This document shows positions 20,618 to 60,596 of a stretch of DNA of 64,000 nt, in pieces. Both the position numbers and the translations under genes were made by a program. This DNA is from Terriglobia bacterium (GTDB lineage: Bacteria; Acidobacteriota; Vicinamibacteria; Vicinamibacterales; CAVVIG01), in NCBI GenBank assembly GCA_020073005.1, contig JAIQFX010000037.1:18-64017 (forward strand), in the 5' to 3' direction. Numbering within the stretch: the stretch's first letter is position 1; each line of letters starts with the position of its first letter. Below the pieces are notes generated by a model. That model did not search any database. It was not told where the DNA came from and saw only the letters and a list, made by a program, of their open reading frames with translations.

Positions 20618-21997
<1,380 letters not shown>

Positions 21998-22159: not shown

Positions 22160-22175
22160 TGGCGCGTGCGTTGCT
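22160..22175 (+). promoter_or_regulatory. sigma-54 (-24/-12) promoter
   Basis: TGGCGCG-TGCG-TTGCT against the consensus TGGCACG-N4-TTGCW. GG-N10-GC spacing is exact and there is one mismatch. It lies between the EBP gene and the first gene of the injection-system operon. Confidence 0.7.
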
Positions 22176-23093: not shown

Positions 23094-23921
23094 GTGAGCG
23101 ACGTCAACACGTTTCTGTCGTCCGCGTTCACGGAGCAGATCAAGCGGCTGATCCTGGGCGTCGAGCCCGTCGACGCCATGCGGCGATCGCGGATCGCGCG
23201 TCCGATCGAGCTGACGCTCGACGGCGTGCCGTACCCGACGGGCACCGTGACGAAGGAAGAGTTCGACGGCACGACCGATCCGCTCGGCTACCTCTCGTCC
23301 ATTCCGAGACACAGCTCGTGCCGCCACGCGCTCGTGTATCCGCCCGATCACGCGTCGCCGATCGCGATCCGGCTCTACGACCGGACGCGGCGCTTCGTGC
23401 CGCGGCGCATCAGCTACGCGATCCCGGATGCGATCGAAACCCGCTCCTCAACGCGCGTGCGACGGCCGGCGCTCTATCCCGGCGCGGCGTACGACGTGAG
23501 CGTGACGGCGACGGGCATGCGGGGCCGCGTCACCTGGAATCAGTCGGACGACGACGAAGTGCCGGCGCGGTGGGTGCGCGTGGAGGCCGCGATCGACGGC
23601 CAGATCGTCGGGCGCGCGCACGGCGACGATCGCGGCGAGTTCCTGCTCGTGCTGCGGAACGAGGCCGGAGGGCTCGGCGATCTGCCGTCGCCGCTCGTCG
23701 CCGACGTCACGGTCTACGGACCGGCCGGGCCGCAGACAGTTCCGGACGACGATCCGCTGGGCGATCTGCCGCTCGAAATCGTGAGCGCGGATCCGGACGA
23801 GGTGTCGGATGGAGAAACGCCGCCGAGCGGGTACGCCGCGACGGCGCACAGCAGCCGGGCCGTGACGTTCGAGCTCGGCACGCTCTTGACCGGTCAGGAC
23901 AAATTTTTTTTCAACGCCTAG
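23094..23921 (+). CDS. hypothetical protein (possible beta-sandwich, carboxypeptidase-regulatory-like segment)
   Basis: 275 aa with good coding bias. MRGRVTWNQSDDDEVPARWVRVEAAIDGQIVGRAHGDDRGEFLLVL resembles prealbumin-like fold repeats. No family is assigned. Confidence 0.5.
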   Translation: MSDVNTFLSSAFTEQIKRLILGVEPVDAMRRSRIARPIELTLDGVPYPTGTVTKEEFDGTTDPLGYLSSIPRHSSCRHALVYPPDHASPIAIRLYDRTRRFVPRRISYAIPDAIETRSSTRVRRPALYPGAAYDVSVTATGMRGRVTWNQSDDDEVPARWVRVEAAIDGQIVGRAHGDDRGEFLLVLRNEAGGLGDLPSPLVADVTVYGPAGPQTVPDDDPLGDLPLEIVSADPDEVSDGETPPSGYAATAHSSRAVTFELGTLLTGQDKFFFNA

Positions 23922-25850: not shown

Positions 25851-26312
25851 ATGGCAACTTTCCGGGACAACCCGTACGGCGCATTCAACTACCTCGTGGC
25901 CCTCGGCGGCGATCAGGGCGACGGCTCCGAGGGCACGATCGTCGGCGGCTTCTCAGACGTGTCTGGCCTCGGCTACGACGTGAGCTACTCGGATTACCGC
26001 AACGGGAACGAGCGCGTGAACACGATGCGGCACATCCCCAACACGTTCAAGAACGACGAAATCACGCTCAAGCGCGGCGTCGTCGGCTCCACCGATCTCT
26101 TCCAATGGCTGAAGGGCGTCGCGGACGGCAAGGCCGATCCGCGGACGGTCACGATCACGATGCTCGACGAGGCGCGCAGCCCCGTCGCCGTCTTCAAGGT
26201 CCGCCAGGCGCAGCCCAAGAAGTGGACGGGCCCGACGCTCGCCTCCAAGGGCGGCGGCGAAGTCGCGATGGAAGAGATCCACCTGGTGCACGAAGGCATC
26301 GAGTACCAGTAA
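25851..26312 (+). CDS. tail tube protein (T4 gp19-like / Afp1-5-like), copy 1
   Basis: 153 aa. NPYGAFNYLVALGG ... GGFSDVSGLGYDVSYSDYRNGNE ... ITLKRGVVGSTDLFQW ... EEIHLVHEGIEY. Confidence 0.85.
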   Translation: MATFRDNPYGAFNYLVALGGDQGDGSEGTIVGGFSDVSGLGYDVSYSDYRNGNERVNTMRHIPNTFKNDEITLKRGVVGSTDLFQWLKGVADGKADPRTVTITMLDEARSPVAVFKVRQAQPKKWTGPTLASKGGGEVAMEEIHLVHEGIEYQ

Positions 26313-26324
26313 GGAGCCGCCGCG

Positions 26325-28379
26325 GTGACCGCGTCTCTCGCGTCGCTCGCGCTCGGGGCGCCGGGCATCTACCCGGCCGCCAGCGAGCCGATTCGCATGC
26401 TGACCGGCGTGCGCATGGACGTCTGCGCGTTCGCGGGCGTCGCGCCGCGCGGTCCCGCGCGCGATCCGTACTTCGACGCCGAGTGGGCGCCGAAGCCGGA
26501 GTCGGAGCGGCCGCGCGATCTCAACGTCAAGCTCGCGACGCCGGTCGCGGTGGAAAGCTGGAGCGAATACACGCGCCTGTTCGGATCGTTCGAAGGTCCC
26601 GGCCTTCTGCCGTACGCGGTCTCCGCGTTCTTCGACAACGGCGGCCGGCGCGCGTACATCGTCCGCATCGTCCATCAGTACTTCAAGGCTGACGGATCCG
26701 GCGATGACGACAAAAACGGCGCCGGATTCGCGCGGGCCGCATTCGCGGGACTGACGGCGAGCGGCGGCCGCGCCGTCTGGGTCCGCGCGCGCAACGAGGG
26801 CTCGTGGGGGAACAGCCTCCGCGTCACGCTTTCGTTCACCGCGCGCACGCTCGGCCTCGCCGCGTCCGACTTCTACGTCGATCGCCTCAGCCTGCCGAAC
26901 GGCGCCGACGCCGTGCCGGGCGCGGTGCTCCGCTTGTTCCTCGGCGCCGGCGTGAAAACGATCCGGCGCATCTCGCTCGTGACCGAGGACTGGAATCCGC
27001 TCGACGGATCGCGGCAGACGTGGGCCTGGTTCGATCACGCCACGGCATCGGCCGCGCAATCCGCCGAGCTGATCGAAGGCGTCGTGACGATCGACGACGG
27101 CGTCAACGCGATCGAGACCTTCGAGCACGTCGGGCTGGCCGCGAACCATCCGCGCTGGCTGGCGAACGTCCTCGTCAACGACTCTGAGCGTCTGTATCCC
27201 TGCGACGATCCCGCGCTGGGCAGCGGCAATCCGCTCGCGTCGTGGATCGACGCGGACCTCGACGTCGACGCGCGGCTCGATCCGATCGCGACGGCTGTCT
27301 TCACCGGCGGCACCGACCGTTACGCCGACATCGTGCCGGAGGATTTCTTCGACAGCGAGTGGGTCCTCGGCGACGACGCGCCGGGCTGCGGCGTCCACGC
27401 GCTGACGCAGCTCGACGATCTCTCGCTCGTCGTCGTGCCGGATCTGTACTCGCCCGGCGCCCTCGCGCCGATCGAATCGATCGTCGAGCCCGCCACGTTT
27501 GCGGGCGCGGAGTTCGCCGAGTGCATCGACCCGGCACCGCCCGACGCGCAGGGCGAGCCGGCCGAGGACCTGACCGGCCTCCGGCTCGATCCTTCCGTCG
27601 ACTTCGACGCCATCGTCGCGCTCCAGCGGCAGCTCGCCGATCTCGCGGACGATCTCGAATCGTTCATCGTCCTGCTCGACGTGCCGCCGCGCCTGAGCCA
27701 GAAGAAGATGCTGAACTGGCGCGCGAAGTTCGACAGCGCGTATGCCGCCGCGTATTACCCGTGGCTGGACGTCACGCGGGCCGACGACGCGCGCGACGCC
27801 AAGATCGCGGTGAATCCATCGGCCGCCGCCGCCGGCATCATCGCGCAGCGCGAGACGCAGTTCGGCGTGCCGTACGGTCCGGCCAACGTGATCGCGACGG
27901 GCGTCGTCGCGGTCGAGGATCGCGTCTCGCCCGCGCGTCACGCCGAGCTGCACCAGAACGCGGTCAACGTCTTCGTGCCCGAGCGCGACGGCGTCCGCCT
28001 GACCGCGGCGCGGACCCTCTCGCGCGATCCGCAGTGGCGGCAGCTCAACGTCCGCCGCCTCGTGACGATGATCCGGCGCGTCCTCGAGCGCCAGATGCAG
28101 TGGGTCGTCTTCGAGCCCAACACGCGACAGCTGCGATTTCAGATCGCGCGCCTGCTCGACGCGTTTCTCCGGCAGCTCTATCGCGCCAACGCGTTCGCGG
28201 GCGCGACGGAAGCCGAGGCGTTCTTCGTCAAGTGCGACGACGAGCTGAATCCGCCGGTGTCGCAGGAGGCCGGGCGGCTGCTGGCGCACGTCGGCGTCGC
28301 GCCGGCCGAGCCGCTCGAGTTCATCGTCGTCAACCTCGCGCGCGAAGGCGATTCCATCCTGACGGCGGAGGACCACTGA
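26325..28379 (+). CDS. contractile tail sheath protein (copy 2, longer)
   Basis: 684 aa with a GTG start. LGAPGIYPAASEP...VCAFAGVAPRGP. The C-terminal part reads AAYYPWLDV ... NVFVPERDGVRLTAARTLSRDPQWRQLNVRRLVTMIRRVLERQMQWVVFEPN. Confidence 0.85.
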   Translation: MTASLASLALGAPGIYPAASEPIRMLTGVRMDVCAFAGVAPRGPARDPYFDAEWAPKPESERPRDLNVKLATPVAVESWSEYTRLFGSFEGPGLLPYAVSAFFDNGGRRAYIVRIVHQYFKADGSGDDDKNGAGFARAAFAGLTASGGRAVWVRARNEGSWGNSLRVTLSFTARTLGLAASDFYVDRLSLPNGADAVPGAVLRLFLGAGVKTIRRISLVTEDWNPLDGSRQTWAWFDHATASAAQSAELIEGVVTIDDGVNAIETFEHVGLAANHPRWLANVLVNDSERLYPCDDPALGSGNPLASWIDADLDVDARLDPIATAVFTGGTDRYADIVPEDFFDSEWVLGDDAPGCGVHALTQLDDLSLVVVPDLYSPGALAPIESIVEPATFAGAEFAECIDPAPPDAQGEPAEDLTGLRLDPSVDFDAIVALQRQLADLADDLESFIVLLDVPPRLSQKKMLNWRAKFDSAYAAAYYPWLDVTRADDARDAKIAVNPSAAAAGIIAQRETQFGVPYGPANVIATGVVAVEDRVSPARHAELHQNAVNVFVPERDGVRLTAARTLSRDPQWRQLNVRRLVTMIRRVLERQMQWVVFEPNTRQLRFQIARLLDAFLRQLYRANAFAGATEAEAFFVKCDDELNPPVSQEAGRLLAHVGVAPAEPLEFIVVNLAREGDSILTAEDH

Positions 28380-28852
28380 TGGCCTCCACGCTCGCGGGCA
28401 CGTTCAACTTCCGCGTCACGCTGAACCGCAGCGACGGCAGCTCGCCGCCGCTCGGCGACGGCGGCTTTCAGGAGTGCACCGGCCTCGATCTCGAAATGGA
28501 CGTCGTCGAGCTGATCGAAGGCGGCCGCAACAACGGCACCGTGCGGCAGGCCGGGCGCGGCAAGTTCAGCAGCATCGTGCTCAAGCGCGGGATGCTCTTT
28601 CCGGATCGCGGCGAAGTGAACAACGGACTGTGGAGCTGGATCCAGAGCGTGTTGAACGGCGAGCGCCCGATCGCGCGCTACGACGGCGTCATCGAGGTGC
28701 TGTCGGCCGACGCCAACGACACCGTCGCGACGTGGACGTTCGACCGCGGGCTGCCGCAGAAGATTTCCGGTCCGCACCTCAACGCGAAGAGCGGCGAGAT
28801 CGCGATCGAGGAACTGACGATCGCGCACGAAGGCCTGCGTCTCAAGGTGTGA
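28379..28852 (+). CDS. tail tube protein, copy 2
   Basis: 157 aa. The ATG at 28379 overlaps the sheath-2 stop (TGATG). FNFRVTLNRS...GGFQECTGLDLEMDVVELIEGGRNNGTVRQAGRGKFSSIVLKRGM ... EELTIAHEGLRL. The track shows it only as the tail of spurious ORF 27242..28852. Confidence 0.85.
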   Translation: MASTLAGTFNFRVTLNRSDGSSPPLGDGGFQECTGLDLEMDVVELIEGGRNNGTVRQAGRGKFSSIVLKRGMLFPDRGEVNNGLWSWIQSVLNGERPIARYDGVIEVLSADANDTVATWTFDRGLPQKISGPHLNAKSGEIAIEELTIAHEGLRLKV

Positions 28853-28856
28853 TGCC

Positions 28857-30215
28857 ATGCCGACGCTGAAGAAAGCCACGCTGCAGGAAATCAAGGCCGA
28901 CGCGAGCGCCGCGCCGCTCGGGCCCGAGATCGAAGTGCAGTTCAACCCGGCGTCGCTGAGGCTCGAGCTGGCGAACAGAATCGAGGGCGGCGAATCGAAG
29001 GGCAAGCAGCAGCGGCAGTACCTGGGCAAGACGTCGACGACGCTCTCTTTCGATCTGCACTTCGACACGGCCGATCAGGGCACGACCGACGCGCCGGTCT
29101 CGGTGCGCACGCTCACCGCGCAGGTCGAGAAATTCCTCCTGCCGAAAGGCGAGGGCAACGCGAAGCAGGCGCCGCCCAAGTGCCGGTTCCACTGGGACGA
29201 GCTCGTCATCGACGGCATCATCGAGAGCGTCTCGATCGACTTCGATCTGTTCGCGTCCAACGGCACGCCGCTGCGCGCGAAGATGGGCGTGTCGATCAAG
29301 GAACAGGACGCGAAGTACGAGCTGCTCCAGAGCGGTCCCGGCGCGAACACGGCCGCCGGCGCATCGCCGTCCGGGGCCTCGCTGGCGGCGGGAAGCTCGA
29401 TCAGCCCGCCGGATCGCAGCGCCGATGCGCTCGAGGGCGAATCGGTGGCGGACTTCGCGGCTCGCATGGGGCTCGACCCGTCGGCGTGGCGCGGGATCGC
29501 GGACGGCCTCGGCGCGGCGAGCTCGCTGTCGCTGTCGGCGGGCCTGTCGATCGGCTTCAGCTCGTCGCTCTCCGCCAGCGCCGGCATCGGCGTCTCGGTC
29601 GGCGTCGAAGCCGGCGCGAGCGCGTCGCTGGACGCGTCGTTCGGTCTCGACGCCAGCGCGAGCGTGAAGGTCGCGTCGGGATCGAGCGCATCGACCTCCT
29701 CCGGCCTCGCGCTCACCGCGGCAGGAGGCGTCGGCGCGGCGCTGGAATCCGTCGCGAGCGCGAAAGCGCAGAGTGCGGCCGGCGACGCCAAGCGATCGTT
29801 CGCGTCGGCGGCGCCGTCATCCGCGCCGTCCTCCGCATCTTCATCGTCGGCGCCGAGCGGGGCCGCATCGAGCCTGCCGTCGAGCATCGCCGCGGCGCTG
29901 CCGCCATCGACGATGCCGAAGCCGTCGCTGCCGGAACAATCGCGCACGCCGCTGCAGTTGAGCGGCCTGCCGTCGCCGGCGACGCAAGCCGCCACACCGA
30001 GCGCGCCGCCGCCGCCGGCCGCCGATCCGCGCACGACGTCGTTCGGCTTCGGCGTTCCGCTGAAACCGCGATCGAACGTGACGGCGGCGACGGCGGCGCC
30101 GAACGATCCATCGGCCGCGCCCTGGACGCGGCCGCCCGTCGTATCGGCGACAACACCGGCGAGCCCGTGCAGCTGTCGCCCGCGGCGCCGTCAGGGAGCG
30201 CACACATGCCAGTGA
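28857..30215 (+). CDS. tube-fold N-terminal domain protein (Afp7-like tube initiator, LysM-like segment) with a long Ser/Ala-rich tail
   Basis: 452 aa. The N-terminal roughly 150 aa (IEVQFNPASLRLEL ... TLSFDLHFDT ... CRFHWDELVIDGIIESVSIDFDLFASNGTPLRAKMGVSIKE) resemble the CIS tube-like domain. GESVADFAARMGLDPSAWRGIA is LysM-like (tentative). Residues from about 170 to 400 are Ser/Ala/Gly low complexity. Confidence 0.65.
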   Translation: MPTLKKATLQEIKADASAAPLGPEIEVQFNPASLRLELANRIEGGESKGKQQRQYLGKTSTTLSFDLHFDTADQGTTDAPVSVRTLTAQVEKFLLPKGEGNAKQAPPKCRFHWDELVIDGIIESVSIDFDLFASNGTPLRAKMGVSIKEQDAKYELLQSGPGANTAAGASPSGASLAAGSSISPPDRSADALEGESVADFAARMGLDPSAWRGIADGLGAASSLSLSAGLSIGFSSSLSASAGIGVSVGVEAGASASLDASFGLDASASVKVASGSSASTSSGLALTAAGGVGAALESVASAKAQSAAGDAKRSFASAAPSSAPSSASSSSAPSGAASSLPSSIAAALPPSTMPKPSLPEQSRTPLQLSGLPSPATQAATPSAPPPPAADPRTTSFGFGVPLKPRSNVTAATAAPNDPSAAPWTRPPVVSATTPASPCSCRPRRRQGAHTCQ

Positions 30216-30382
30216 CGATCGGCGAGCTGACCACCGAAGTGATCGCGGAAGACGCCGCGCCCGCGGCGAGCGCCGGCGCGGCGGCGGGCGATGAGCCGCA
30301 GCACCTCACGATGATTCGCGCCCAGATGGCGGCCGTCGCGCGCGAGACGATGCGAACGCGCGCGGAAGGGTTCGATGACTGA
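30206..30382 (+). CDS. small DUF5908-like (Afp6/Pvc6-like) protein
   Basis: 58 aa. MPVTIGELTTEVIAEDAAP... matches my recollection of the MP[IV]EI.EL N-terminus of the roughly 60-aa eCIS-associated family. It overlaps both neighbours (by 10 nt and 8 nt). It is hidden in the track inside ORF 29180..30382. Confidence 0.55.
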   Translation: MPVTIGELTTEVIAEDAAPAASAGAAAGDEPQHLTMIRAQMAAVARETMRTRAEGFDD

Positions 30383-31454
30383 TCTCTTCGTCTCGAAGTC
30401 GCCCGTCTTCAAGGTGGACGGCCAGGTGCGCGGCGAGCTCGCGCGCGACATGTCGTCGCTGCGGATCGACGAGGCGACCGACGGTCTCAAGACGATGGTG
30501 TTGAACCTGACGGCCGAGGGGCCGCAGGACAACGCGGCCGAGGAACAGCAGCTCTATCTCGACGGCCGGATCGTGGATTTCGGCAAGGCGATCGAAGTGT
30601 CGATCGGACCCGGCGACAACGCGCGGATCGTGTTCAAGGGCGTCATCAGCGCGATCGAAGTGAACTTCAGCGGCGGCGGCGTGCCTCACGTCACCGTGTT
30701 CGCGGAGGACAAGCTGATGAACCTGCGCATGACGCGGCGCATCAAGACGTGGGAGAACATGACCGACGCCGATATCGCGAGCCAGATCGCGTCCGAGAAC
30801 GGGCTGACCGCCGACACATCCGCGACGGGGCCGACCTACAAGGTCGTCCAGCAGTGGAACCAGAGCGATCTCGCGTTCCTGCGCGAGCGCGCCCGCCTGA
30901 TCCAGGCCGAGGTGTGGTTCGACAACGACACGCTCTGCTTCAAGACGCGCGGCAACCGCGCCGGCACGACGATGACGCTCGTGCAGGGCCGCGAGCTGAT
31001 CGACGTGCAGATTCGCGCGGATCTCGCGCACCAGCGCACGAAGGTCAAGGCCAGCGGCTTCGACGCGGGCGCTCGCGATCAGATCGACGAAGAGTCGGGA
31101 TCGGACGCGATCCAGGCGGAGATCTCCGGCGGCCGCACCGGCCCCGCGGTCCTCGAGCAGGCGTTCGGCGAGCGCGTGTCGTACCGCGTGCGCGAGAATC
31201 CGCTCGCGTCGGGCGAAGCGAGCGCGTGGGCCAAGGCGGAGATGCTGCGCCGGTGCCGCGGCTTCGTCACGGCGCTCGGCACGACCGACGGCTCGCCGGA
31301 CATGGTGGTCGGCAGCACGCTGAACCTCGATCGCGTCGGCGCGCCGTTCAACGGCGACGGCTACTACGTCGTCCACGTGTCGCACACCTACGATCTCGCC
31401 CACGGGTACCGCACGCACTTCGAAGCGCAGCGGCCCACGATCAACGAGGCCTGA
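30375..31454 (+). CDS. phage late control gene D (gpD)-like baseplate hub protein
   Basis: 359 aa. TVFAEDKLMNLRMTRRIKTWENMTDADIASQIASENGLTAD ... QQWNQSDLAFLRERARLIQAEVWFDNDTLCF ... GDGYYVVHVSHTYD. Confidence 0.85.
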   Translation: MTDLFVSKSPVFKVDGQVRGELARDMSSLRIDEATDGLKTMVLNLTAEGPQDNAAEEQQLYLDGRIVDFGKAIEVSIGPGDNARIVFKGVISAIEVNFSGGGVPHVTVFAEDKLMNLRMTRRIKTWENMTDADIASQIASENGLTADTSATGPTYKVVQQWNQSDLAFLRERARLIQAEVWFDNDTLCFKTRGNRAGTTMTLVQGRELIDVQIRADLAHQRTKVKASGFDAGARDQIDEESGSDAIQAEISGGRTGPAVLEQAFGERVSYRVRENPLASGEASAWAKAEMLRRCRGFVTALGTTDGSPDMVVGSTLNLDRVGAPFNGDGYYVVHVSHTYDLAHGYRTHFEAQRPTINEA

Positions 31455-31455
31455 T

Positions 31456-32127
31456 GTGAAGATCGATGCCTTCAGGCCCGACGGCGACGCGCCCCGCTAC
31501 TTCGGCGTGTACCCCGCCATCGTCACCGACCTCACGAAGGACAGCGAGAGCCTCGGCCGCGTCGAGGTGAAGTTTCCGTGGCTCGGCGCGGACGGCTCGG
31601 ACGTGCGCGCGCTCGCGACGCTGTGCACGCCGTACGCCGACGACGATCAGGGGCTCGAGATCATTCCGGAAGTCGACTCGCAGGTCGTCGTCGCGTTCGA
31701 AGCCGGAGTGCTCACCCGGCCGTACATCATCGGCGCCTGCTGGAACGGACAAGAGTCGCTGCCGGAGAGCCCGACCGCCGCGAACAACAAGCGGCTCATC
31801 AAGACGCGATCGGGGAGCCAGCTCGAGTTCGACGACACGTCCGGCGCCGCAAAAGTCACGATCTCGATGAAGAGCGGGCACGTCCTCGTGCTCGACGACA
31901 GCGCGCAGGAGATCAAGCTCACGCACTCGAACGGCTGCCTGCTCAAGATGAACGCCGCGGGCCAGGTCTCGCTCACGGCCAACTCCACGGTCGAGATCAC
32001 GGCGTCGGCCGTGAACGTCCACGCCGCGACGGCCACCTTCGACGGGATCGTGAACTGCACGACGCTGATCGCGTCGAGCGCGGTCGTGTCGCCGTCCTAC
32101 ACGCCGGGCGCCGGCAACATCTGGTGA
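31456..32127 (+). CDS. gp5/baseplate-V (VgrG C-terminal-like) spike protein
   Basis: 223 aa with a GTG start. YFGVYPAIVTDLTKDSESLGRVEVKFPWLG ... IPEVDSQVVVAFEAGVLTRPYIIGACWNG is an OB-fold. It is followed by beta-helix-like repeats (KVTISMKSGHVLVLDDSAQEIKLTHSNGCLLKMNAAGQVSLTANSTVEITA). Confidence 0.85.
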   Translation: MKIDAFRPDGDAPRYFGVYPAIVTDLTKDSESLGRVEVKFPWLGADGSDVRALATLCTPYADDDQGLEIIPEVDSQVVVAFEAGVLTRPYIIGACWNGQESLPESPTAANNKRLIKTRSGSQLEFDDTSGAAKVTISMKSGHVLVLDDSAQEIKLTHSNGCLLKMNAAGQVSLTANSTVEITASAVNVHAATATFDGIVNCTTLIASSAVVSPSYTPGAGNIW

Positions 32128-32131
32128 CGCG

Positions 32132-33853
32132 ATGACGCATCCGATCGAACGCGACTGGATGATCGTGGCGCCCTGGTGGCGGTGGACCGATCCCGCGACG
32201 GTTCCGGCGGGCACGCCGGTCACGCCCGATCCGGCGAAGGGCCGGCTCTCGACGCCGATCTTCCAGAAGTACGACTCGGCCAGCCTCGTCACGGACTTCA
32301 TGAAGGATCCGCAGCGCTGCCTGACGTTCGTCGACGACGATCTCGTCCACGCGGTCCGCGCGCGATCGGGCGCCTCGACGAGCAAGGCGGGCAAGCTCTT
32401 CCGCATCACGGCCAGCACGCAGTCTGGCGCGGTGGTCGATCAGGAATACGTGCCTGACGGCACCGACACGCGAAAGATCTTTCTCAACACGCACAAGCGT
32501 TTCTATCTCGCCGTCTGCGACGTGCGGTGCGACGGCCCGGGCTTCCCGAAGGTCGCGCGCAACAAGATTTGCCAGGCGGGGTTCGTCGTCCGGCGGCGCA
32601 CGCTCACGGCTCCAGGAAATGCGCTCGACGAAGTGAAGCCGATCGTGAAGCGCTTGACGACGAGCCGGAGCAAGCTGGCGCGCGTCAACGAACTGAGCGA
32701 GATCGAGCAGTTGGCGCTCAGCGAGGCGACCGGCGGCAAGACGACGACGAGCGCCAAGCTCGAGTCGCTCCTGAAGACGCGCGCGTCGCTGCAGGATCTG
32801 CTCGCCACGGAGCGGGACCGCTTCGACGCGTGGGTGAAGCGGTTCAACGTCGTCCCGCAGCTGCAGGGCTGGTTCCCGTCGCCGAAGGGCTTCGCGAACG
32901 TCGGCTACTGGGGAACCGTGAGCGAGAGCCCGGATGCGCTCGGTACTGAGTCGAGCTTTCCGCTTTACCCGCTGATTCCCGATCAGAACGATCCGGATCA
33001 CGACGGCCAGTTCGGGACGATCTACTTCGGGCTCCTGCCGGTCTCGTCGCACGACTGCGACGAGACCGGCCGCGCGCGCTTCGACGATCAGGAGTACTAC
33101 GAGGTGCGCTGCTGGGTGACGCGGCATCTCGTGCCGCACGATCCCGATCAGCCGTGCCCGTGCCCCGACGGCATCTTCTGGAGCCGGCCGACGCGGCCGT
33201 ACAAGCTCGCGCCGCACTTCGATCTCGCGGGCACGAGCAATCAGCCCATCACGATCCAGCTGCCCGATCTCAACGCGCTCGCCGCGCAGGCGAAGCCGAC
33301 GCTCGGCGTCGGGTTCGCGAAGCCGCCGGGCTCGCTCATGCTCCAGACCTCCACCGACGGGACGCCCAAGAAGAAGGACTCCGGACGATCCGCGTCATTC
33401 GAGATCTGCTTCTTCCCGATCCCGCTGATCACGATCGTCGCGACGTTCGTGTTTCAGCTCTTCCTGCCTGTCGTCATGTTCGTCTTCCAGTTGTGGTGGA
33501 TGCTCGCGCTGAAGTTCTGCATCCCGCCCGAGATCGAAGTCGGCGCCGCGATCAGCGCCGAGATCGGACTCGGCGGGCAGATTGGCATCAAAGCCGACGT
33601 GGACCTCGACGCCGAGATCGAGGCGCGCATCGATGGGGCCGTGCAGCTCAGCGTGAACAAGGCGTTCGATCCTGCGACCGCGGCTTCTCTGCTCGCCACG
33701 TACTCGCCGATCGCGCTCGCGAACCTGGAAGTCGGCGCCAGCTCGGCGGCGGCCGCGACCGACACGGATCCGGACACGACCGCTCCCGCCGGCGCCGACG
33801 TGCCGTCGGCCGTCGCCAATCTCGACTACGAGCCTGAGGTCACGCACGCATGA
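32132..33853 (+). CDS. unassigned 573-aa protein with a C-terminal hydrophobic hairpin, located between spike and gp25
   Basis: Good coding bias. It has Cys-containing motifs (YLAVCDVRCDG, SSHDCDETG, VRCWV, QPCPCPDG). A roughly 40-residue hydrophobic stretch, FEICFFPIPLITIVATFVFQLFLPVVMFVFQLWWMLALKFCI, is encoded at about 33398-33526. I do not recognise a family. Confidence 0.6.
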   Translation: MTHPIERDWMIVAPWWRWTDPATVPAGTPVTPDPAKGRLSTPIFQKYDSASLVTDFMKDPQRCLTFVDDDLVHAVRARSGASTSKAGKLFRITASTQSGAVVDQEYVPDGTDTRKIFLNTHKRFYLAVCDVRCDGPGFPKVARNKICQAGFVVRRRTLTAPGNALDEVKPIVKRLTTSRSKLARVNELSEIEQLALSEATGGKTTTSAKLESLLKTRASLQDLLATERDRFDAWVKRFNVVPQLQGWFPSPKGFANVGYWGTVSESPDALGTESSFPLYPLIPDQNDPDHDGQFGTIYFGLLPVSSHDCDETGRARFDDQEYYEVRCWVTRHLVPHDPDQPCPCPDGIFWSRPTRPYKLAPHFDLAGTSNQPITIQLPDLNALAAQAKPTLGVGFAKPPGSLMLQTSTDGTPKKKDSGRSASFEICFFPIPLITIVATFVFQLFLPVVMFVFQLWWMLALKFCIPPEIEVGAAISAEIGLGGQIGIKADVDLDAEIEARIDGAVQLSVNKAFDPATAASLLATYSPIALANLEVGASSAAAATDTDPDTTAPAGADVPSAVANLDYEPEVTHA

Positions 33854-34239
33854 GCGCGATTGCCTTTCTCGGCCAGGGATGGAATTTCCCCGTGGCGCCG
33901 CCGCCCTCCGGCGGAGCGCTCGAGTACGCCTCGGGCCCGGACAAGGTCGCGCAGTCGATCTGGATCATTCTCGACACCGATCCGGGCGAGCGCGTGATGC
34001 GGCCGACCTTCGGCTGCGGGCTGCGCCGGTATCTCATGGCGCCCAATACGACGGCGACGCGCGCGCTGATCAAGCACGACGTGCAGATCGCGCTCGCGAC
34101 GCTCGAGCCGCGCATCACCGTGACGGATCTGCAGGTCACGCCGGGCGACGATCCCGCGCTGGTGCTCATTCGCGTCGCGTACCTCAACATCCGCGACAAC
34201 CGGCCGGGCAACCTCGTGTACCCGTTCTATCTGGAGTAG
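33850..34239 (+). CDS. GPW/gp25-family baseplate wedge protein
   Basis: 129 aa. GQGWNFP ... VAQSIWIILDTDPGERVMRPTFGCGLRRYLMAPN ... The start overlaps the upstream stop (ATGA). Confidence 0.85.
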   Translation: MSAIAFLGQGWNFPVAPPPSGGALEYASGPDKVAQSIWIILDTDPGERVMRPTFGCGLRRYLMAPNTTATRALIKHDVQIALATLEPRITVTDLQVTPGDDPALVLIRVAYLNIRDNRPGNLVYPFYLE

Positions 34240-34245
34240 CGACGC

Positions 34246-36489
34246 GTGCCCCTGCCAACCCCGATCCTCGACGATCGTTCCTACCAGCAGCTCCGCGACG
34301 AGCTGATCCGGCGCATTCCCGTCTACGCGCCCGAGTGGACCGATCACAACGCGAGCGATCCGGGCATCACGCTGATCGAGCTGTTCGCGTTCCTCGGCGA
34401 GAACCTGCTCTACCGCTTCAATCAGATTCCGGAAGCGACCAAGCTCGCGTTCCTCAAGTACCTGCAGATTCCGCTCCGGCCCGCGACCGCGGCGCGCGCG
34501 ATGGTCACGATCAAGACCTCCGGCACGAGCAGCTCGGTTCTCGTGCCGATCGCGACCGAGATGCGCGCCGGCTCGGTGCCGTTCGAGTCGCTCACCGAAG
34601 TGTCCGCGTGGCCGCTCGAGATCACCGCGATGGGCAAGATCGTCGCGGCGAAGCCGACGTCGCCCGACAGTCTCGAATTCACTGAAGCGGCGATCGCCGC
34701 GCGCGGCGGTCTGAAAGCGAAGGAGCAGGCGGCCTACTACACGAACGCGACCGTGCCCGGCGATCCGACGGCGGCGACGGCGGCGCCGGTGGATTTCTCG
34801 GTCGCCTCGACCTCGGTCGACTACTCGAAGTCCGTCGACGGCGCGATCTGGATCGCGGTCCGCAAGACCAAGGACACCGACATCGGCGCGCTCGACAAGG
34901 GACTTCTCAGTCTCGGCTTCGTGCCCGATCCCGTCGTCCCCACGATCGAAGAGATCGACGCGTGCCCAGGCGCGGGGCGATCGTCGAGCAGCGGCTCAGA
35001 AATGATCTGGCAGGCGTCGACGTCAACGCTCGAGGCGAACGGCCTGCCCGCCTACACGAGCATCACGGTCGAGCGAGACACGACGCGCGGTCTGGAAACG
35101 CAGGGCACCGTGCAGCTGCGGCTGCCCGACAACGTCGAAACGGCGCTCGGTGTGGTCGCGCTGTCCGACGTCGATCGCGGCGGCACCGACACGTTCCCGC
35201 CACAGATCGAGGACGACGATGTCGCGAAGTCGGTGATCTTCTGGCTGCGCGCGACGCGGCGCGATCCCTCGCGCCCGCTCGGCAAGATTCTGTTCATCGG
35301 CATCAACGCGACTGAAGTGGTGCAGATGATCACGGCGCCGCCGGAGTTCGTCGGCACCGGCACGGCGGGCGCCAGCCAGGTCTACAAGCTGGTGCACACG
35401 CCGGTCATCAACGGCACGACGTCGATCCAGGTCGAAGAGCCGCAGGGCTGGACCGATTGGCAGGCCGTCGACGGCTTCGAGGAAAGCACGGAAGACTCGC
35501 GGCACTACGTCCTCGATCCGGAAGCCGGAACGATCACGTTCGGCAACGGTGTGCGCGGCCGTGCGCCGCAGATCGGCGAACGCATCCGCGCGGTCGAGTA
35601 CCGGTACGGCGGCGGCGCCGATGGCAACGTCGGCGCAAAGGCGATCACGAAGATCGTCGGCGTCAGCAGCGTCGCCGCGAGCAATCCGCTGCCCGCCGTC
35701 GGCGGCGCGCCCGGCGAAACCGTCGCCGAAGGCCTCGAACGGGTCCCCGGCGAATTCCGCCGCCACGATCGCGCGGTCACGCAAAGCGACTTCGAAGAGC
35801 TCGCGCTCGCCACGCCCGGCGCTGGCGTCGGCCGCGCCGATTGTCTGCCGCTCTTCGATCCGCGAACGAAGAACCCCGATGCCGCCGGCGTCGTGAGCGT
35901 CGTCGTCTGGCCGCGCGAGGATCTCGCGCACCCGAACGCACCGGTGCCGGATCGCGCGCTGCTCTCACAAGTGTGCGAGTGCCTCGACGCGCGACGCCTG
36001 ATCACGACCGAGCTGTACGTGATCCCGCCCACGTACAGACGCATCGCCGTCGCCGTCGGACTGCAGGCGAAGCCCGGGTACGGCATCGAGGCCGTGCGGC
36101 GATGGGCCGAGCTCGTCGTCCGTCAGTACCTCTCGCCGCTTCCGCCGTACGGACCGTCGGGCGACGGCTGGCCGCTCGGCACCGACGTGTACGGACCGGA
36201 GCTCGAAGCCGCCGTGCTGCAGGTCGAAGGCGTGCAGTTCATCGAGTGCCTGCGTCTCGCGGTGTGGGACGAGACCAAGAAGGCGTGGGTCGAAGCGATG
36301 GCCGAGGCCACGACCGACGGGAGCAACTGCCCGCCGCGCGAAAAGATCCCGATGAAGGCGTGGGAAGTCCCCGAGGTCGCGGAGATCACGGTGGTGCAGG
36401 GCGACGCGATGACGCCGGGCGAAGCGCTCGGCCCGGTGACGCCGCCGCTCGTGCCCGTGCCGATCCCGACGATCAAGAGCGAGTGCTGA
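34246..36489 (+). CDS. baseplate J / gp6-like (Afp11-like) baseplate protein
   Basis: 747 aa with a GTG start. LDDRSYQQLRDELIRRIPVYAPEWTDHNASDPGITLIELFAFLGENLLYRFNQIPE ... RAVTQSDFEELALATPGAGVGRADCLP ... LITTELYVIPPTY. Confidence 0.85.
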   Translation: MPLPTPILDDRSYQQLRDELIRRIPVYAPEWTDHNASDPGITLIELFAFLGENLLYRFNQIPEATKLAFLKYLQIPLRPATAARAMVTIKTSGTSSSVLVPIATEMRAGSVPFESLTEVSAWPLEITAMGKIVAAKPTSPDSLEFTEAAIAARGGLKAKEQAAYYTNATVPGDPTAATAAPVDFSVASTSVDYSKSVDGAIWIAVRKTKDTDIGALDKGLLSLGFVPDPVVPTIEEIDACPGAGRSSSSGSEMIWQASTSTLEANGLPAYTSITVERDTTRGLETQGTVQLRLPDNVETALGVVALSDVDRGGTDTFPPQIEDDDVAKSVIFWLRATRRDPSRPLGKILFIGINATEVVQMITAPPEFVGTGTAGASQVYKLVHTPVINGTTSIQVEEPQGWTDWQAVDGFEESTEDSRHYVLDPEAGTITFGNGVRGRAPQIGERIRAVEYRYGGGADGNVGAKAITKIVGVSSVAASNPLPAVGGAPGETVAEGLERVPGEFRRHDRAVTQSDFEELALATPGAGVGRADCLPLFDPRTKNPDAAGVVSVVVWPREDLAHPNAPVPDRALLSQVCECLDARRLITTELYVIPPTYRRIAVAVGLQAKPGYGIEAVRRWAELVVRQYLSPLPPYGPSGDGWPLGTDVYGPELEAAVLQVEGVQFIECLRLAVWDETKKAWVEAMAEATTDGSNCPPREKIPMKAWEVPEVAEITVVQGDAMTPGEALGPVTPPLVPVPIPTIKSEC

Positions 36490-36490
36490 C

Positions 36491-38779
36491 ATGTCGGAGC
36501 TGCGACCCTTCGCGTTGCTGCGCACCGGCGATCAGTGGCTGCGGTGCTCGTACGAGGACACCGCGCTCGATCCCCAGGCGGGCATCGTCACGCTCGCATC
36601 GACGACCGCGACCGCGGACACGTCGACGCCGGCGCCGCCGCTCGGCGCGGGCCTCGCCTTCGATCACGAGTGCCGCCTGTATCACAGCACGGCGTCCGCG
36701 GACGGATCGGCCGATCGCGTCGAGCGCATTCTCTGGAAGGCGACCGATCCGCTCGGGCCGATCGCGGATCAGCCGCCGCCGCTGAATCTGTTCGACAGCC
36801 ATCGCGTCGACAGTCACGGAGACTTCGCGGCGGCCGAGGCCGAACGATCGCTCGTCGAACCGCGCGGGCTCGCCGTCGACTGCAACGATCGGCTGTTCGT
36901 CGCCGAGCGCGGCAGCGATCGCATCCTTATCTACGACCTGTGGAGCGAGCGTCTGGTCCGCCGCGTCGCGCTGCCGGGCACGCGGCCGTGCGATCTCGCG
37001 TCCCACGGCAACGACGTCTACGCCGTCCTCACCGGCACGAAGCAGATCGTCCGCCTGACCGCGAGCTCCGGACCCGCGCCGTTGGCGCTGCCGAACGGAT
37101 GCACGGATCCGTCGCGCGTCGCCGTCTCGCCGTCGGGCGCCGTCGCGATTCTCGAGAAGGCCGCTACGGCCAACGCGCGCGTCTGGTTCGCGGACGGAGT
37201 GTTCGCGAGCGTCGCCGTTCCCATGGCGACCGATCTCGAATGGGAATCGGACACGGTGATCGTCGTCGCGCGCCGGCCCGGCGCGGATTTCCATCGATAT
37301 CAGCTCACAGCGGGACAACCAGCGGTGCGACTGCCGTCGCTGCGCGGCCGCGACTACGACGGCCTCGGCATCGTCGCGCTGCCGGTCACCGAGTGTTCGT
37401 GCGCGACGAGCAAGAGCGCGAAGGATTCCGTCGAGCGCCGGATCGGTTACTGGACCGCATTCGGTTTCCGCACGGCCGTGCTCGCGCGGCAGGTCTACGC
37501 GCGCAGCGGACGCGTGACGACGTTCCGTCTCGACAGCGGCGCGTTCCAGACCGTGTGGGGCCGGCTGTTCGTCGACGCGTGCCTCCCCGAGGGCACCGAT
37601 CTGCGCGCGCACTTCATCGTCGCTGACGATGCCGACGATGAGACGCCGATCGTGCGCGGGGCGCCGGTCAACCTGGGCAGCAGCTACACGGTCGAGCACG
37701 CGGAGCTTTCACCGCCGCTGCCGCCCGCGGTGATGGCGCCGGACGCGGATGAAGTCGTGCAGCCGCTGCACGAGCGCGAGAGCGGACGCGAGCTGCCGTG
37801 GACCGCCGTTCCCGGCGATCGATTCGAGACCTTCGAAGCGCCGATCAACGCGCCGGCGGGACGGTATCTCTGGATCACGCTCGAGCTGCGCGGCAACACG
37901 CGCGTGACGCCGAAGGTCAGATGTCTGCGCGCGGAGCATCCGTCGCACGATTACCTGCGGCGCCTGCCGCGCACGTTTTCGCGCAGCGACGCCGCCGCGT
38001 CGTTCCTGCTGCGGTATCTCGCGATCTTCGAAGGCTTCCTCGGCGAGACCGAAGCGCGCGGCGTCGACCGCCATCTGCTGCTCGATCCGTGCTCGGCGCC
38101 CGCCGATTGTCTCCCGTGGCTCGCGAGCTTCGTCGGCTTGACTCTTGACGATCGCTGGGCGAGCGCGCCGGCGCCGTGCGGGCACGCGTCGCCGGATGCG
38201 AGGCGCCGCATCATCAAGGAAGCCGCGTGGCTGTTCCGCTATCGCGGCACGTTGCCCGGCCTCACGCGCTTCATCGAGCTGTACGTCGGATCGCCGGTCA
38301 TCATCATCGAGAAGTTCCGCCTGCGCGGCGTGGGCGCCGTCGTGCTCGGCGACCGCGAGACGTCGCACAACTCCATCGTCGGCGTCGGGTTCCGGATCGG
38401 CGGAGCCGTCAGCAGCGATACATCTACACCGGACACGCCGGATCAAATCGACGCCGACGCGTTCCGCACGCACGCGCATCGCTTCACCGTGATGATCCCG
38501 GCGCCGCTCACCGACGAGCAGCTCGACGTCGTCACGCAGATCATCAAGATTCATCGGCCGGCACACACGTCCTTCGACATCTGCACCGCCGGCGCCGGCA
38601 TGCGCGTCGGTCGCGGGCTGATGCTCGCGGTCTCGTCGATCATCGGTCCGACCGGCGCGTTCTCGCCGTTCCAGATCGCCGCCACGTCCGTGCTCGGCCG
38701 CGACGCGATCGTCGGCCGTCCGGCGGAGGGCGGCTCGGTCGGCAACAGCCGGCTCGGCGCCACGACGAGGATCGGGTAG
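36491..38779 (+). CDS. P2 gpI-like (Afp12-like) baseplate wedge protein with an N-terminal NHL/beta-propeller-like region
   Basis: 762 aa. PRGLAVDCNDRLFVAERGSDRILIYDL is NHL-like. YLRRLPRTFSRSDAAASFLLRYLAIFEGFLGETE ... CLPWLASFVGLTLDDRW ... EAAWLFRYRGTLPGLTRFIELYVG is the tail protein I domain. Confidence 0.8.
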   Translation: MSELRPFALLRTGDQWLRCSYEDTALDPQAGIVTLASTTATADTSTPAPPLGAGLAFDHECRLYHSTASADGSADRVERILWKATDPLGPIADQPPPLNLFDSHRVDSHGDFAAAEAERSLVEPRGLAVDCNDRLFVAERGSDRILIYDLWSERLVRRVALPGTRPCDLASHGNDVYAVLTGTKQIVRLTASSGPAPLALPNGCTDPSRVAVSPSGAVAILEKAATANARVWFADGVFASVAVPMATDLEWESDTVIVVARRPGADFHRYQLTAGQPAVRLPSLRGRDYDGLGIVALPVTECSCATSKSAKDSVERRIGYWTAFGFRTAVLARQVYARSGRVTTFRLDSGAFQTVWGRLFVDACLPEGTDLRAHFIVADDADDETPIVRGAPVNLGSSYTVEHAELSPPLPPAVMAPDADEVVQPLHERESGRELPWTAVPGDRFETFEAPINAPAGRYLWITLELRGNTRVTPKVRCLRAEHPSHDYLRRLPRTFSRSDAAASFLLRYLAIFEGFLGETEARGVDRHLLLDPCSAPADCLPWLASFVGLTLDDRWASAPAPCGHASPDARRRIIKEAAWLFRYRGTLPGLTRFIELYVGSPVIIIEKFRLRGVGAVVLGDRETSHNSIVGVGFRIGGAVSSDTSTPDTPDQIDADAFRTHAHRFTVMIPAPLTDEQLDVVTQIIKIHRPAHTSFDICTAGAGMRVGRGLMLAVSSIIGPTGAFSPFQIAATSVLGRDAIVGRPAEGGSVGNSRLGATTRIG

Positions 38780-38783
38780 CGCC

Positions 38784-40409
38784 ATGACTTCGATCGCCAT
38801 CGATCGCTTCAAGGCGCGCTATCGCACACCCGCGAGCGCGGTCCCGCGCCTGCGCCGGATCACGGACAGCGCGCTGACGAGCGTGCTCCCGCTCGTAGTC
38901 AATGCCGCCGTCGATCGATCAGGGATCGCGACGGACGGCTACGTCTGCGTTCGCGACCTGCACGCGACGGCGAGACTGCGTCTCGCGGAACCGGACTCGG
39001 CGCTGGCGACTCACCTTGGTGAGGCGATCGCGGATGCGATCCGCGCCGCGTTGCGCGACCCGTCGGCCGCGGCCGTCCATTACAGCTCGCGCGCGCAGGC
39101 GTTGATCGATCTCGCCGCCAGCGCGCTGGCAGGCGACTTCAGCCGGCGCTGGGCGTGGATGCAGATCGGCCTCTGGCGCACGGACGTGAACGTGAGCGCC
39201 GGCGCGGCCGCCGATCTTGTGCTCCGCGCGCTGACGCGCGAGCCGCGAGACGCGGCGGCGGTCGTGGCGTGGCTGGCGCGTCACCGTCCAGCTGCGCTGG
39301 TGTCGGTCATCACGCGGGCGACGCCGAGCCTGTGGACCTCGCTGGCCCGCGCGGCACTCGGCGCCACCGGCGCCGCTTTCGACGTGGCCGATCCGGGCGA
39401 CCGCGTCGGCGCACGGGTGCGCGCACGTGACGGCGAGCGCCAGCGCGCCGATCCGATCGGTCCTGACACGGTCGCGGCCGCGTCGCTCGTGGCACGGTCG
39501 CCCATCGCGCGCGTCGCGGCGGAATTCGCTCGCGATCTTCCCACCGGCTCCTGGCGCGCGCTCGCGACGCTCCTGCTGCTGGACGTCGAGCCTGCGACTC
39601 TCAGAAATGTGGCGGCCGATCGCGCCGGTGCGCTCGTCGCCGCCGTGGCGGGCGCGCTGAAGTTGCGGGCGCTCGCACCATTGCCGGCGTCAGACGCAGC
39701 GCAGACATCGGACGTTCGCGAGGCAGCAACGCCGACCGATGGTACTCGCGACACCAGATCGAAATCAGCGAACGAGCACCAGCGCGACGAGCAACGTCCC
39801 GCGCGCCACGATGCGTCGATCGAGACGCCGCTCGCCGCGGCCGAAGCGACGCAGGACGCGGCCACGCTCGATCGCGACGATGACGACGAACCGTTGCCGG
39901 AGGTTCGCGCCGAGGCATCGACGGAATGCGGCGGTCTCCTCTACCTGATCAACGTGGCCACGCGCCTCGCCCTGGCCGACGCCATCGTCCGCGACGATCG
40001 CTTGAAAGACCGCGGGCCGCGCTGGGTGCTCCATCAGATCGCAACGGCGCTGGCGTCGATCGCGCCGTCCGATCCCTCGGCGCTGGCGTTCGCCGGTCTT
40101 CCGCCGGACGCGCGATCGCCGTCATCGCTCGAAGCGTTGCCCACCGAAATCGAAACGATGGCCATCGGTGATCATCGCGCCGCGATCGTGCAGGCGCTGC
40201 GGGACGCGCTCGATCGGCCGGAGGAGCCGGAAGTCGATCTCCTGAATTTCGTCTGCCGCCGATCCGCCCGCATCGTCGCCGATCCGGGCTGGATCACCGT
40301 TCGCCTGGCGCTCGACGACGTGTCGCCGGACATCCGGCGCGCGGGTCTGGATCTCGATCCCGGGTGGGTGCCGTGGCTCGGCGTCGTCGTGAGGTTCACG
40401 TATGCGTGA
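38784..40409 (+). CDS. hypothetical protein; candidate tape-measure (Afp14-like) by position and C-terminal motif
   Basis: 541 aa, Ala/Arg-rich and helical-looking. It lies directly upstream of the AAA+ ATPase, as Afp14 does. The C-terminal CGGLLYLINVATRLALADAIV ... DPGWVPWLGVVVRFTYA resembles what I recall of CIS tape-measure C-termini. This is unverified. Confidence 0.45.
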   Translation: MTSIAIDRFKARYRTPASAVPRLRRITDSALTSVLPLVVNAAVDRSGIATDGYVCVRDLHATARLRLAEPDSALATHLGEAIADAIRAALRDPSAAAVHYSSRAQALIDLAASALAGDFSRRWAWMQIGLWRTDVNVSAGAAADLVLRALTREPRDAAAVVAWLARHRPAALVSVITRATPSLWTSLARAALGATGAAFDVADPGDRVGARVRARDGERQRADPIGPDTVAAASLVARSPIARVAAEFARDLPTGSWRALATLLLLDVEPATLRNVAADRAGALVAAVAGALKLRALAPLPASDAAQTSDVREAATPTDGTRDTRSKSANEHQRDEQRPARHDASIETPLAAAEATQDAATLDRDDDDEPLPEVRAEASTECGGLLYLINVATRLALADAIVRDDRLKDRGPRWVLHQIATALASIAPSDPSALAFAGLPPDARSPSSLEALPTEIETMAIGDHRAAIVQALRDALDRPEEPEVDLLNFVCRRSARIVADPGWITVRLALDDVSPDIRRAGLDLDPGWVPWLGVVVRFTYA

Positions 40410-60524: not shown

Positions 60525-60596
60525 AGTGGCTCGGCGGCTCGAATCAACGATCCGGCGCCTGGTGCCGTCTAAGGCCCCGAGGACACTGGAGGTTCC

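Follow-up and report, generated by a model that had tools for sequence, protein, structure and literature searches.

Organization of the locus

A 64,000-nucleotide stretch of a Terriglobia bacterium genome (phylum Acidobacteriota; contig JAIQFX010000037.1 of assembly GCA_020073005.1), hereafter called the window, holds a complete contractile injection system (CIS) operon on its + strand (Table 1). The subject of this report is a protein of 573 amino acids encoded in that operon between the genes for the gpV spike and the gp25 wedge protein, for which we use the working label X. A preliminary description of this DNA, prepared from the sequence and a list of its open reading frames (ORFs), had singled out X as a Cys-motif protein with a hydrophobic hairpin and had suggested that it may be either a membrane anchor or a novel spike-tip or membrane-inserting payload.

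The ORF call and translation give an ATG start for X. The gpV stop codon (TGA, 32125-32127) is followed by a 4-nt spacer, CGCG, and then by this start codon at 32132. At the other end, the X stop codon (33851-33853) shares bases with the gp25 ATG (33850-33852) in an ATGA overlap. Both junctions are as the preliminary description had given them. An identical 573-residue protein is encoded on an independent ENA metagenome contig, where the flanking genes are likewise of the Phage_GPD, Phage_base_V and GPW_gp25 families.

In the Afp and PVC gene order, the PAAR gene afp10 comes after gp25 (afp9), not between the spike and gp25 genes. The proposal that X sits where PAAR or Afp10 normally sits therefore holds in part: X does lie between spike and gp25 and has no PAAR domain, but the slot corresponds only approximately. 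No PAAR domain was detected in X, in the 93 small reading frames between 18 and 50 kb, or in the large ORFs. Family searches recognized no tape-measure or plug gene in the cluster, and no hypervariable fibre-like gene was recognized there.

Subtype IIb is the only subtype of extracellular CIS (eCIS) that lacks afp10 (Chen 2019, PMC6899500). According to the same survey, afp14 is mostly missing in eCIS lineage II, and subtype IIb carries additional subtype-specific conserved genes without known domains, which were left unexplained. Judged by gene content against that published description, the locus in the window fits subtype IIb, because separate gp27-like and gp5-like ORFs make up VgrG (Afp8), Baseplate_J (afp11) is present as a single gene, and there is no Afp10; the Pvc16_N cap gene and the AAA+ ATPase gene complete the signature. 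As in the genes drawn as grey boxes for IIb (PMC6899500), the locus also has a divergent afp12 and extra conserved genes without domains. From this match of descriptions, X is very probably one of the IIb subtype-specific conserved genes. The grey-box genes were presented without names, features or functions, and the hairpin, Cys pair, fold and fixed position of X are not described there.

Table 1. Genes of the CIS operon and regions of X, in nucleotide positions of the window
Feature	Position	Strand	Evidence or remarks
Cap (Pvc16_N)	22496-23086	+	Pfam
Conserved unknown	23094-23921	+	
Sheath 1	23952-25802	+	
Tube 1	25851-26312	+	
Sheath 2	26325-28379	+	
Tube 2, second tube paralogue, 157 aa	28379-28852	+	ATG overlaps sheath-2 stop by one base
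Cis7-like tube initiator	28857-30215	+	CIS_tube domain
gpD/gp27-like hub, other half of split VgrG	30375-31454	+	Phage_GPD 6.4e-13, VgrG_rel
gpV/gp5-like spike, OB fold and beta-helix	31456-32127	+	Phage_base_V 1.2e-19; matches C-terminal halves of PDB VgrG
X, core protein specific to the subtype-IIb CIS lineage	32132-33853	+	ORF, homologues, null family searches
X: N-terminal globular domain, aa 1-360, beta-rich, no known fold	32132-33211	+	AlphaFold2 pLDDT 87-98
X: long alpha-helical hairpin inserted in N-domain, aa 162-238	32615-32845	+	DSSP helices 162-200 and 208-238; sequence poorly conserved
X: conserved extended linker, aa 360-402	33209-33337	+	A.HFDL.GTS..PVTIQLPDL..LAAQAKP.LG..FAKPPGS
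X: putative hydrophobic hairpin, aa 425-466	33404-33529	+	ICFFPIPLITIVATFVFQLFL-P446-VVMFVFQLWWMLALKFCIPP, flanked by C426/C463
X: acidic C-terminal region, aa 467-573	33530-33850	+	3 K/R vs 18 D/E
gp25/Afp9 wedge protein	33850-34239	+	GPW_gp25 5.7e-22
gp6/Baseplate_J (Afp11), single copy	34246-36489	+	Baseplate_J 7.9e-14, TIGR02243 3e-88
Cis12/gp7-like baseplate protein, N-terminal NHL-repeat part	36491-38779	+	CIS12_fam, Tail_P2_I, NHL
Conserved unknown, 541 aa	38784-40409	+	
CIS AAA+ ATPase	40402-42372	+	

Distribution and conservation of X

Homologues of X are numerous: a 90%-clustered database contains at least 805, none of which is named or carries a Pfam domain. A profile search of 1.84 billion representative sequences (E<=1e-3) gathered 1111 clusters at 50% identity, nearly all with proteins of 500-620 residues. 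By scanning GTDB species genomes, we located 80 X loci from about ten phyla, with representatives in Acidobacteriota, Gemmatimonadota, Myxococcota, Actinomycetota, Alpha-, Beta- and Gammaproteobacteria, Planctomycetota, Verrucomicrobiota and Chloroflexota. The gene order gpD-gpV-X-gp25-gp6 is kept in every one of these loci (80/80), and the X stop codon overlaps the next start as ATGA or GTGA in 72 of 79. These figures support the earlier suggestion that X is expressed together with the spike and baseplate as a component of the CIS. The same arrangement occurs on a Rhodococcus opacus plasmid, where RefSeq labels the X homologue "hypothetical". As a separate observation, sheath 2 and tube 2 of the Rhodococcus plasmid locus (L083) are separated by an insertion of two DUF4157 genes.

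No relatives of X were found in 50,697 phage genomes, and the two IMG/VR sequences that match X come not from phages but from CIS fragments, which carry a cap gene and keep the same synteny. Because its synteny is fixed and phage genomes yield no match, X is best described, on the genomic record, as a universal, CIS-specific core gene of its lineage, neither a phage-tail heirloom nor a variable payload. As a whole, X evolves faster than its neighbours, with a median identity of 37% vs 59-67% for tube, spike and gp25. A mirror-tree comparison of distance matrices (X against 13 cluster proteins in 52 loci) gave correlations that sort by evolutionary rate only, with no specific signal to gpV or gp25.

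Two apparent gene fusions were set aside. One (P0307, locus L085; ENA contig_127990, 4798-6915) joins the C-terminal part of X in frame to gp25; it was discarded as a probable long-read indel artefact because its contig has several frameshifts in X and gp6. The other (P0249), in which the gpV tail is fused to X, is a 400-residue fragment.

Family and fold searches

Searches of Pfam (E<=0.01), NCBIfam and PHROGs returned no match for X or for 39 relatives, and no PAAR match appeared in 39 family members even at E<=10. Sequence and profile searches of the PDB found no entry related to X. An AlphaFold2 (AF2) model built from a 111-sequence alignment has a predicted local distance difference test score (pLDDT) of 86.7 and a whole-chain predicted template-modelling score (pTM) of 0.86. 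When this model and a second one (pLDDT 70.6) were compared with the PDB by using Foldseek, the best E-values were 0.03-0.04 with TM-scores of 0.1-0.2, and only alpha-hairpins of efflux adaptors were retrieved; the alpha-hairpin inserted in the N-terminal domain alone explains these weak MacA/AcrA rows. Foldseek found no structural neighbour in BFVD, and what these searches did return was coiled-coil noise.

The cone-shaped beta fold of PAAR proteins (about 100 residues) has no counterpart in the X models in the PDB comparison. With family, profile and structure searches all empty, the earlier statement that X has no PAAR-like motifs is confirmed, and X is not a PAAR protein by sequence or by fold. 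X was also compared with tape-measure proteins (Afp14/gp29): its N-terminal domain is beta-rich and globular, and no tape-measure family matched.

Domain structure of X

Conservation figures for X refer to a 301-sequence alignment. The Cys motifs listed in the preliminary description, CDVRCDG (C129, C133), DCDETG (C309) and CPCPDG (C342, C344), are all present in the translation. Family conservation extends to C133, C147, C327, C342 and C344, and not to C309 or C63. Together with H121 and H290, these five Cys residues are conserved in 88-99% of sequences, and the Cys/His cluster of the N-terminal domain is a candidate structural metal site.

The extended linker that follows the N-terminal domain is almost gap-free, with a mean top-residue frequency of 0.62, and is modelled with moderate confidence (pLDDT 65-87); confidence falls over residues 360-428. 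We consider residues 360-402 a candidate partner-binding segment.

The C-terminal region contains three helices within residues 490-544 and ends in a conserved tail, (L/Y)E(F/Y)E.EV.H(A/P). In the AF2 model, the tail forms beta-bridges at residues 566 and 571-572 with pLDDT 92-94, the only strands of the region. The N- and C-terminal parts of X thus appear, in the model, to pack together.

Over residues 467-508 (33530-33655), hydrophobic and polar residues alternate strictly, and the register is kept along about 40 positions. The segment has a hydrophobic moment at 180 degrees of 2.74, compared with 1.24 +/- 0.21 in 2000 shuffles (z of about 7), and the pattern is conserved among the 301 homologues although the sequence is not. 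Such a pattern resembles amphipathic beta structure with an acidic face, whereas AF2 places a helix at 490-511. An amphipathic beta-hairpin was considered for this segment and withdrawn, since AF2 and covariation at i,i+4 make residues 489-511 helical. Elsewhere in the cluster, the second-highest score for hydrophobic/polar alternation (2.03) belongs to the Cis7-like protein, at residues ~232-271, a Ser/Gly/Ala-rich stretch located after the CIS_tube domain.

The hydrophobic segment

The hydrophobic segment noted earlier near the C-terminus of X is confirmed at residues 425-466. From I425 to L460 it contains no charged residue, and Kyte-Doolittle means over 19 residues reach 2.4. The best 21-mer (432-452) has a summed Hessa free energy (dG) of -0.36 kcal/mol; the next-best 19-mer among the 19 proteins of the cluster scores +3.3, and no segment in the cluster other than residues 425-466 is membrane-like.

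This segment is also the most conserved region of the protein, with a mean top-residue frequency of 0.76, an entropy of 0.98 bit and a gap fraction of 0.01. Its length is fixed at 42 residues, essentially without insertions or deletions. P446 is present in 285 of 301 sequences and K/R461 in 95%, and the N-terminal flank is rich in Lys and Arg (+4). C426 and C463 lie 20 and 17 residues from P446. Both Cys residues occur in 287 sequences and both are lost in about 8, and a single loss is seen in at most 1. Because the nearest neighbours of most Cys-less sequences carry the Cys residues, the alignment suggests that the pair was lost jointly and repeatedly.

Assessment of covariation by mutual information (MI) with average product correction was complicated by top pairs that reflect mainly indel and subfamily effects. 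We therefore used only C426/C463 and, with little weight, 295/572 and 397/442. Residues 294/295 covary modestly with residue 572, the pair 295/572 ranking 32nd by MI.

Monne, Hermansson and von Heijne reportedly found in 1999 that a single central Pro makes a hydrophobic stretch of about 40 residues a helical hairpin. The fixed length with its central P446, the paired Cys residues, the packing of the tail on the body in the AF2 model and the 295/572 covariation together support a two-helix hairpin at 425-466 with both ends on one side. In the AF2 model itself, residues 430-452 are helical and a second, short helix spans 455-459 (pLDDT 65-73), with low confidence over 460-489. The membrane hairpin proposed in the preliminary description is favoured by the charge-free hydrophobic stretch, P446, the joint Cys loss and the tail packing, and is less well matched by the model, whose helix breaks at 453-454 and not at P446.

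Comparison with known systems

PAAR proteins and their equivalents Afp10, Cis10 and T4 gp5.4 are encoded near spike and gp25 genes, as is X; X has a possible Cys/His metal site, and its lineage lacks PAAR. PAAR proteins bind as a single copy to the blunt end of the VgrG/gp5 beta-helix. However, these proteins have about 100 residues, whereas X has 573, with a putative hydrophobic hairpin, a large alpha-hairpin and no PAAR motifs.

Several CIS lineages include membrane proteins. CisA (SCO4242), from the subtype-IId CIS of Streptomyces, is a cluster-encoded membrane protein of a fibre-less lineage that is needed for firing; its N-terminal part lies in the cytoplasm and is predicted to touch the baseplate (PMC12237407). 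Cis13 of the Anabaena thylakoid CIS (tCIS) is a fibre-like trimer with a transmembrane (TM) helix (PMC8894136), Hbor_38620 of the haloarchaeal type VI secretion system (T6SS) is a 6-TM protein (PMC11566945), and SalCis19 is a 3-TM hydrolase (10.1101/2025.06.01.657177). All four have been shown or proposed to be anchors or adaptors in the producer membrane (PMC8894136, PMC12237407, PMC11566945, 10.1101/2025.06.01.657177).

X resembles CisA in being encoded in a CIS cluster and in having a membrane-like segment. CisA differs in that its gene stands at the cluster end and the protein has an unstructured N-terminus, a single membrane pass and a periplasmic C-terminal domain like those that bind substrates, and is not found in purified particles (PMC12237407). 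X is instead encoded between gpV and gp25 and has a folded N-terminal domain (pLDDT 87-98), a tail predicted to pack on the body and a probable hairpin with its ends inside. The set of features of a CisA-type adaptor (a gene downstream of the baseplate genes, a disordered N-terminus, one TM helix, a periplasmic C-terminal domain) is not seen in X as encoded and modelled. Cis13, Hbor_38620 and SalCis19 likewise contribute TM segments, encoded in CIS clusters, that link a phage-tail-like machine to the producer membrane, but their genes lie peripherally or beyond the core, each in a narrow taxon, whereas X spans about ten phyla. By position and architecture, X is set apart from CisA, Cis13, Cis19, Hbor_38620 and SalCis19.

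Hydrophobic hairpins that are carried on a tip or sheltered before they enter a target membrane are also found in T6SS prePAAR effectors with TM domains (TMDs) and Eag chaperones, in type III secretion translocators, in colicin and in diphtheria toxin. The likeness to X is a functional analogy only, since X has no sequence or fold similarity to these proteins, no chaperone gene is seen near it, and its gene belongs to the conserved core, unlike those of polymorphic effectors. By analogy, X may work like the membrane anchors of the other CIS or like the TMD-bearing spike-tip effectors.

Possible roles of X

The evidence is firm that X is a structural or accessory subunit, co-expressed stoichiometrically, that belongs with the junction of spike and wedge and carries a membrane-competent, sequence-specific hydrophobic segment. 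Tentatively, we favour the reading that X is a baseplate subunit at the spike end that is inserted in the cytoplasmic membrane of the producer as an anchor or gate; we infer both the membrane and the location. The hairpin is probably how IIb machines engage a membrane. In the mechanism that we propose, X would be a structural core subunit of a PAAR-less IIb CIS, made together with gpV and gp25. Its N-terminal domain and C-terminal helical region would form one cytoplasmic body, which would dock at the spike end of the baseplate, on the conserved gpV tip or on the inner wedge. The 42-residue stretch would fold at P446 into a helical hairpin whose ends lie on the same side, so that C426 meets C463. 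The hairpins would enter the producer's own cytoplasmic membrane, with no hydrophilic domain to translocate, and three or six copies of X could hold the baseplate to the membrane in a set orientation, perhaps also forming a gate through which the spike fires.

Insertion in the producer membrane is favoured because a segment without a chaperone is expected to insert where it is made, and because no fibre-like hypervariable gene is present. An anchor is favoured because TM proteins of four other CIS lineages have been shown or proposed to be anchors or adaptors. The fixed place of X in 80/80 loci, the lack of relatives in phage genomes, the absence of PAAR and the uniqueness of the membrane-like segment in the cluster also speak for this reading.

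Several points weigh against this reading. Conservation in X peaks in the hydrophobic stretch, where many positions are near-identical; this is unusual for a simple lipid-facing anchor and speaks for tight packing between proteins, be it in an oligomeric bundle or in a sheltered soluble state. AF2 models X as a compact single body and breaks the helix at 453-454, where its confidence is 65-73, and the summed dG of the segment is close to 0, which is borderline. The locus has hallmarks of released eCIS, namely the AAA+ ATPase, the Pvc16 cap and an eCIS_core/DUF4157 protein. Known anchor genes in the other lineages stand at the edge of the cluster instead of between spike and wedge. Literature searches on IIb systems, or on IIb host genera with CIS, gave no experimental or structural work.

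The conservation of the hairpin and the compact model (pTM 0.86), in which the hairpin precedes amphipathic helices, also fit the main rival reading, in which X is borne on the particle. X might then be a spike-tip or cage protein seated on the tip of gpV, in a particle that is released or cytoplasmic, and replace PAAR functionally, which we regard as possible but doubtful. Its hairpin might be sheltered by amphipathic helices or by oligomerization until firing drives it into the target membrane, or into the producer's from inside, and we hold this course of events to be equally doubtful. That the spike or cargo then passes through a pore or translocon opened by the inserted hairpin is a suggestion of no greater likelihood. 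IIb alone lacks Afp10/PAAR, and X is encoded directly after gpV. The C-terminal tip of gpV is its most conserved part, which suggests a conserved partner, and near-identity in the hairpin fits packing in a pre-insertion state. The layout of X, a hairpin followed by amphipathic helices, recalls the sheltered hairpins of colicin, diphtheria toxin and Bcl-2. Outside the cell, a disulfide between C426 and C463 could staple the hairpin, and the locus has an eCIS_core cargo candidate as well as an AAA+ ATPase. Membrane-inserting helices at a spike tip have a precedent in T6SS prePAAR/TMD effectors (PMC12881460). However, no Eag-type chaperone and no target-binding fibre gene were recognized in the cluster, and Foldseek searches of the PDB and BFVD revealed no structural similarity to pore-forming families. 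At 62 kDa, X is far above the size of any known tip, and a structural subunit with a hydrophobic hairpin borne on the particle is undescribed for any CIS.

Alternatively, X could be a non-membrane adaptor between hub and wedge, or an assembly factor, with its hydrophobic helices buried in the baseplate interior; we consider this unlikely. The proposal that these helices form, for example, a bundle around or under the spike, or take the role of a missing Cis6 plug or tape measure, is similarly unlikely. In favour of this reading, the order of assembly is reflected in the place of X between the genes for hub and wedge, conservation of the hydrophobic residues is extreme, and the K397/E442 charge pattern hints at a contact between helix and linker. 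Tape-measure and plug genes are unrecognizable in the cluster, and afp14 is mostly absent in lineage II (PMC6899500). Nonetheless, a charge-free stretch of 36 residues with a Kyte-Doolittle mean of 2.4 is very rare in soluble assemblies. The Trp-Trp and Lys/Arg461 at one end and the K/R-rich N-terminal flank look like membrane-interface features, and a globular domain of 360 residues is, from its size, presumably too big for the lumen of a tube or spike.

Class II holins have a hairpin topology with N and C termini inside. A hairpin of X with both termini inside would share this topology, so that X might be an effector or holin-like release factor, its hairpin permeabilizing the producer membrane for particle release or X itself being a toxic payload. 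We judge this improbable, because effectors and holins are variable and either small or peripheral, whereas X has 520-600 residues and is universal, syntenic and translationally coupled to structural genes, and no toxin domain was found in it. Full-length CisA is toxic in E. coli (PMC12237407), so CIS membrane proteins can do harm. Of the payload proposal in the preliminary description, the variable effector finds no support in a universal syntenic core gene, and the spike-tip or membrane-inserting protein survives beside the producer-membrane anchor. That X is an ordinary extended PAAR or tape-measure protein missed by sequence searches is very improbable: its conserved Cys/His cluster could mimic a PAAR Zn site and its lineage lacks recognizable PAAR and tape-measure genes, but its 39 examined members gave no PAAR match at E<=10, its confident model matches neither PAAR nor any other PDB fold, and it is beta-rich and globular, not a long helical ruler.

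Other features of the locus

Across 52 loci, the last 30 codons of gpV (tip ATFDGIVNCTTLIASSGVVSPSYTPGAGNVW) are its best conserved part, above the beta-helix body; this pattern suggests a conserved partner or apex structure. The NHL-containing N-terminal part of Cis12 is conserved at full length across phyla. The 541-residue protein is conserved only at its two ends, is rich in Ala and Arg, and is not fibre-like. An ORF at 28474-28869, considered as an Afp6-like gene, was rejected as an Arg-rich artefact of an alternative frame; the true gene is tube 2.

Downstream of the operon, a 672-residue protein encoded at 49787-51805 (+) matches Pfam eCIS_core (DUF4157; 8e-29) and is likely a cargo or effector of the CIS. 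Two very large ORFs, at 45117-48584 (+) and 56475-60971 (-), encode 1155 and 1498 residues without a Pfam match and have coding-like GC content at third codon positions.

Upstream, a sigma-54 consensus, TGGCGC-N5-TTGCT, is located at 22160-22175 (+) and is the only exact match in the 64 kb. A small ORF (22190-22492) follows 15 nt beyond the site, and the cap gene 320 nt beyond it. Directly upstream of the site, 20618-21997 (+) encodes an enhancer-binding activator of the sigma-54 type (Sigma54_activat 1.6e-60). Because of this exact promoter consensus and the adjacent activator gene, the CIS operon may be under sigma-54 control. Just upstream of the activator, a 710-residue protein (18203-20335, +) has a CDP-alcohol phosphatidyltransferase domain and a weakly sulfatase-like C-terminal part.

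Implications

That IIb has unexplained genes of its own and lacks PAAR was already published in 2019 (PMC6899500). What appears undescribed is the identity of X, its fixed position between spike and gp25 across about ten phyla, its unmatched fold and its hyper-conserved, Pro-centred and Cys-flanked hairpin. With some 1,100 clusters at 50% identity, X represents a sizeable protein family that lacks a Pfam entry and has no structural neighbour among PDB entries.

Every CIS lineage must engage a membrane, and whether a given machine is a released eCIS or is membrane-bound or cytoplasmic is the main open question of the field. X provides a handle on this question for IIb, as the sole membrane-like protein of the cluster, universal in the lineage and with features that can be mutated: P446, C426/C463, the Cys/His cluster and the C-terminal tail. 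Culturable IIb hosts include Aliiglaciecola lipolytica E3, Nitrococcus mobilis Nb-231, Micromonospora fulviviridis JCM 3259, Hyalangium versicolor and Caulobacter sp. BE254.

It is conceivable, though we would put it forward with considerable doubt, that a CIS lineage spread across phyla has replaced the PAAR tip with a protein of novel fold bearing a Cys-stapled membrane hairpin, and so brings its own translocon or gate. Were X indeed a replacement for PAAR, it would represent a new principle by which a CIS crosses a bilayer, distinct from PAAR sharpening and from the membrane complexes of T6SS. If X is instead an anchor, subtype IIb would be a membrane-attached CIS like the T6SS, the tCIS and the CisA-dependent CIS, and not a free one.

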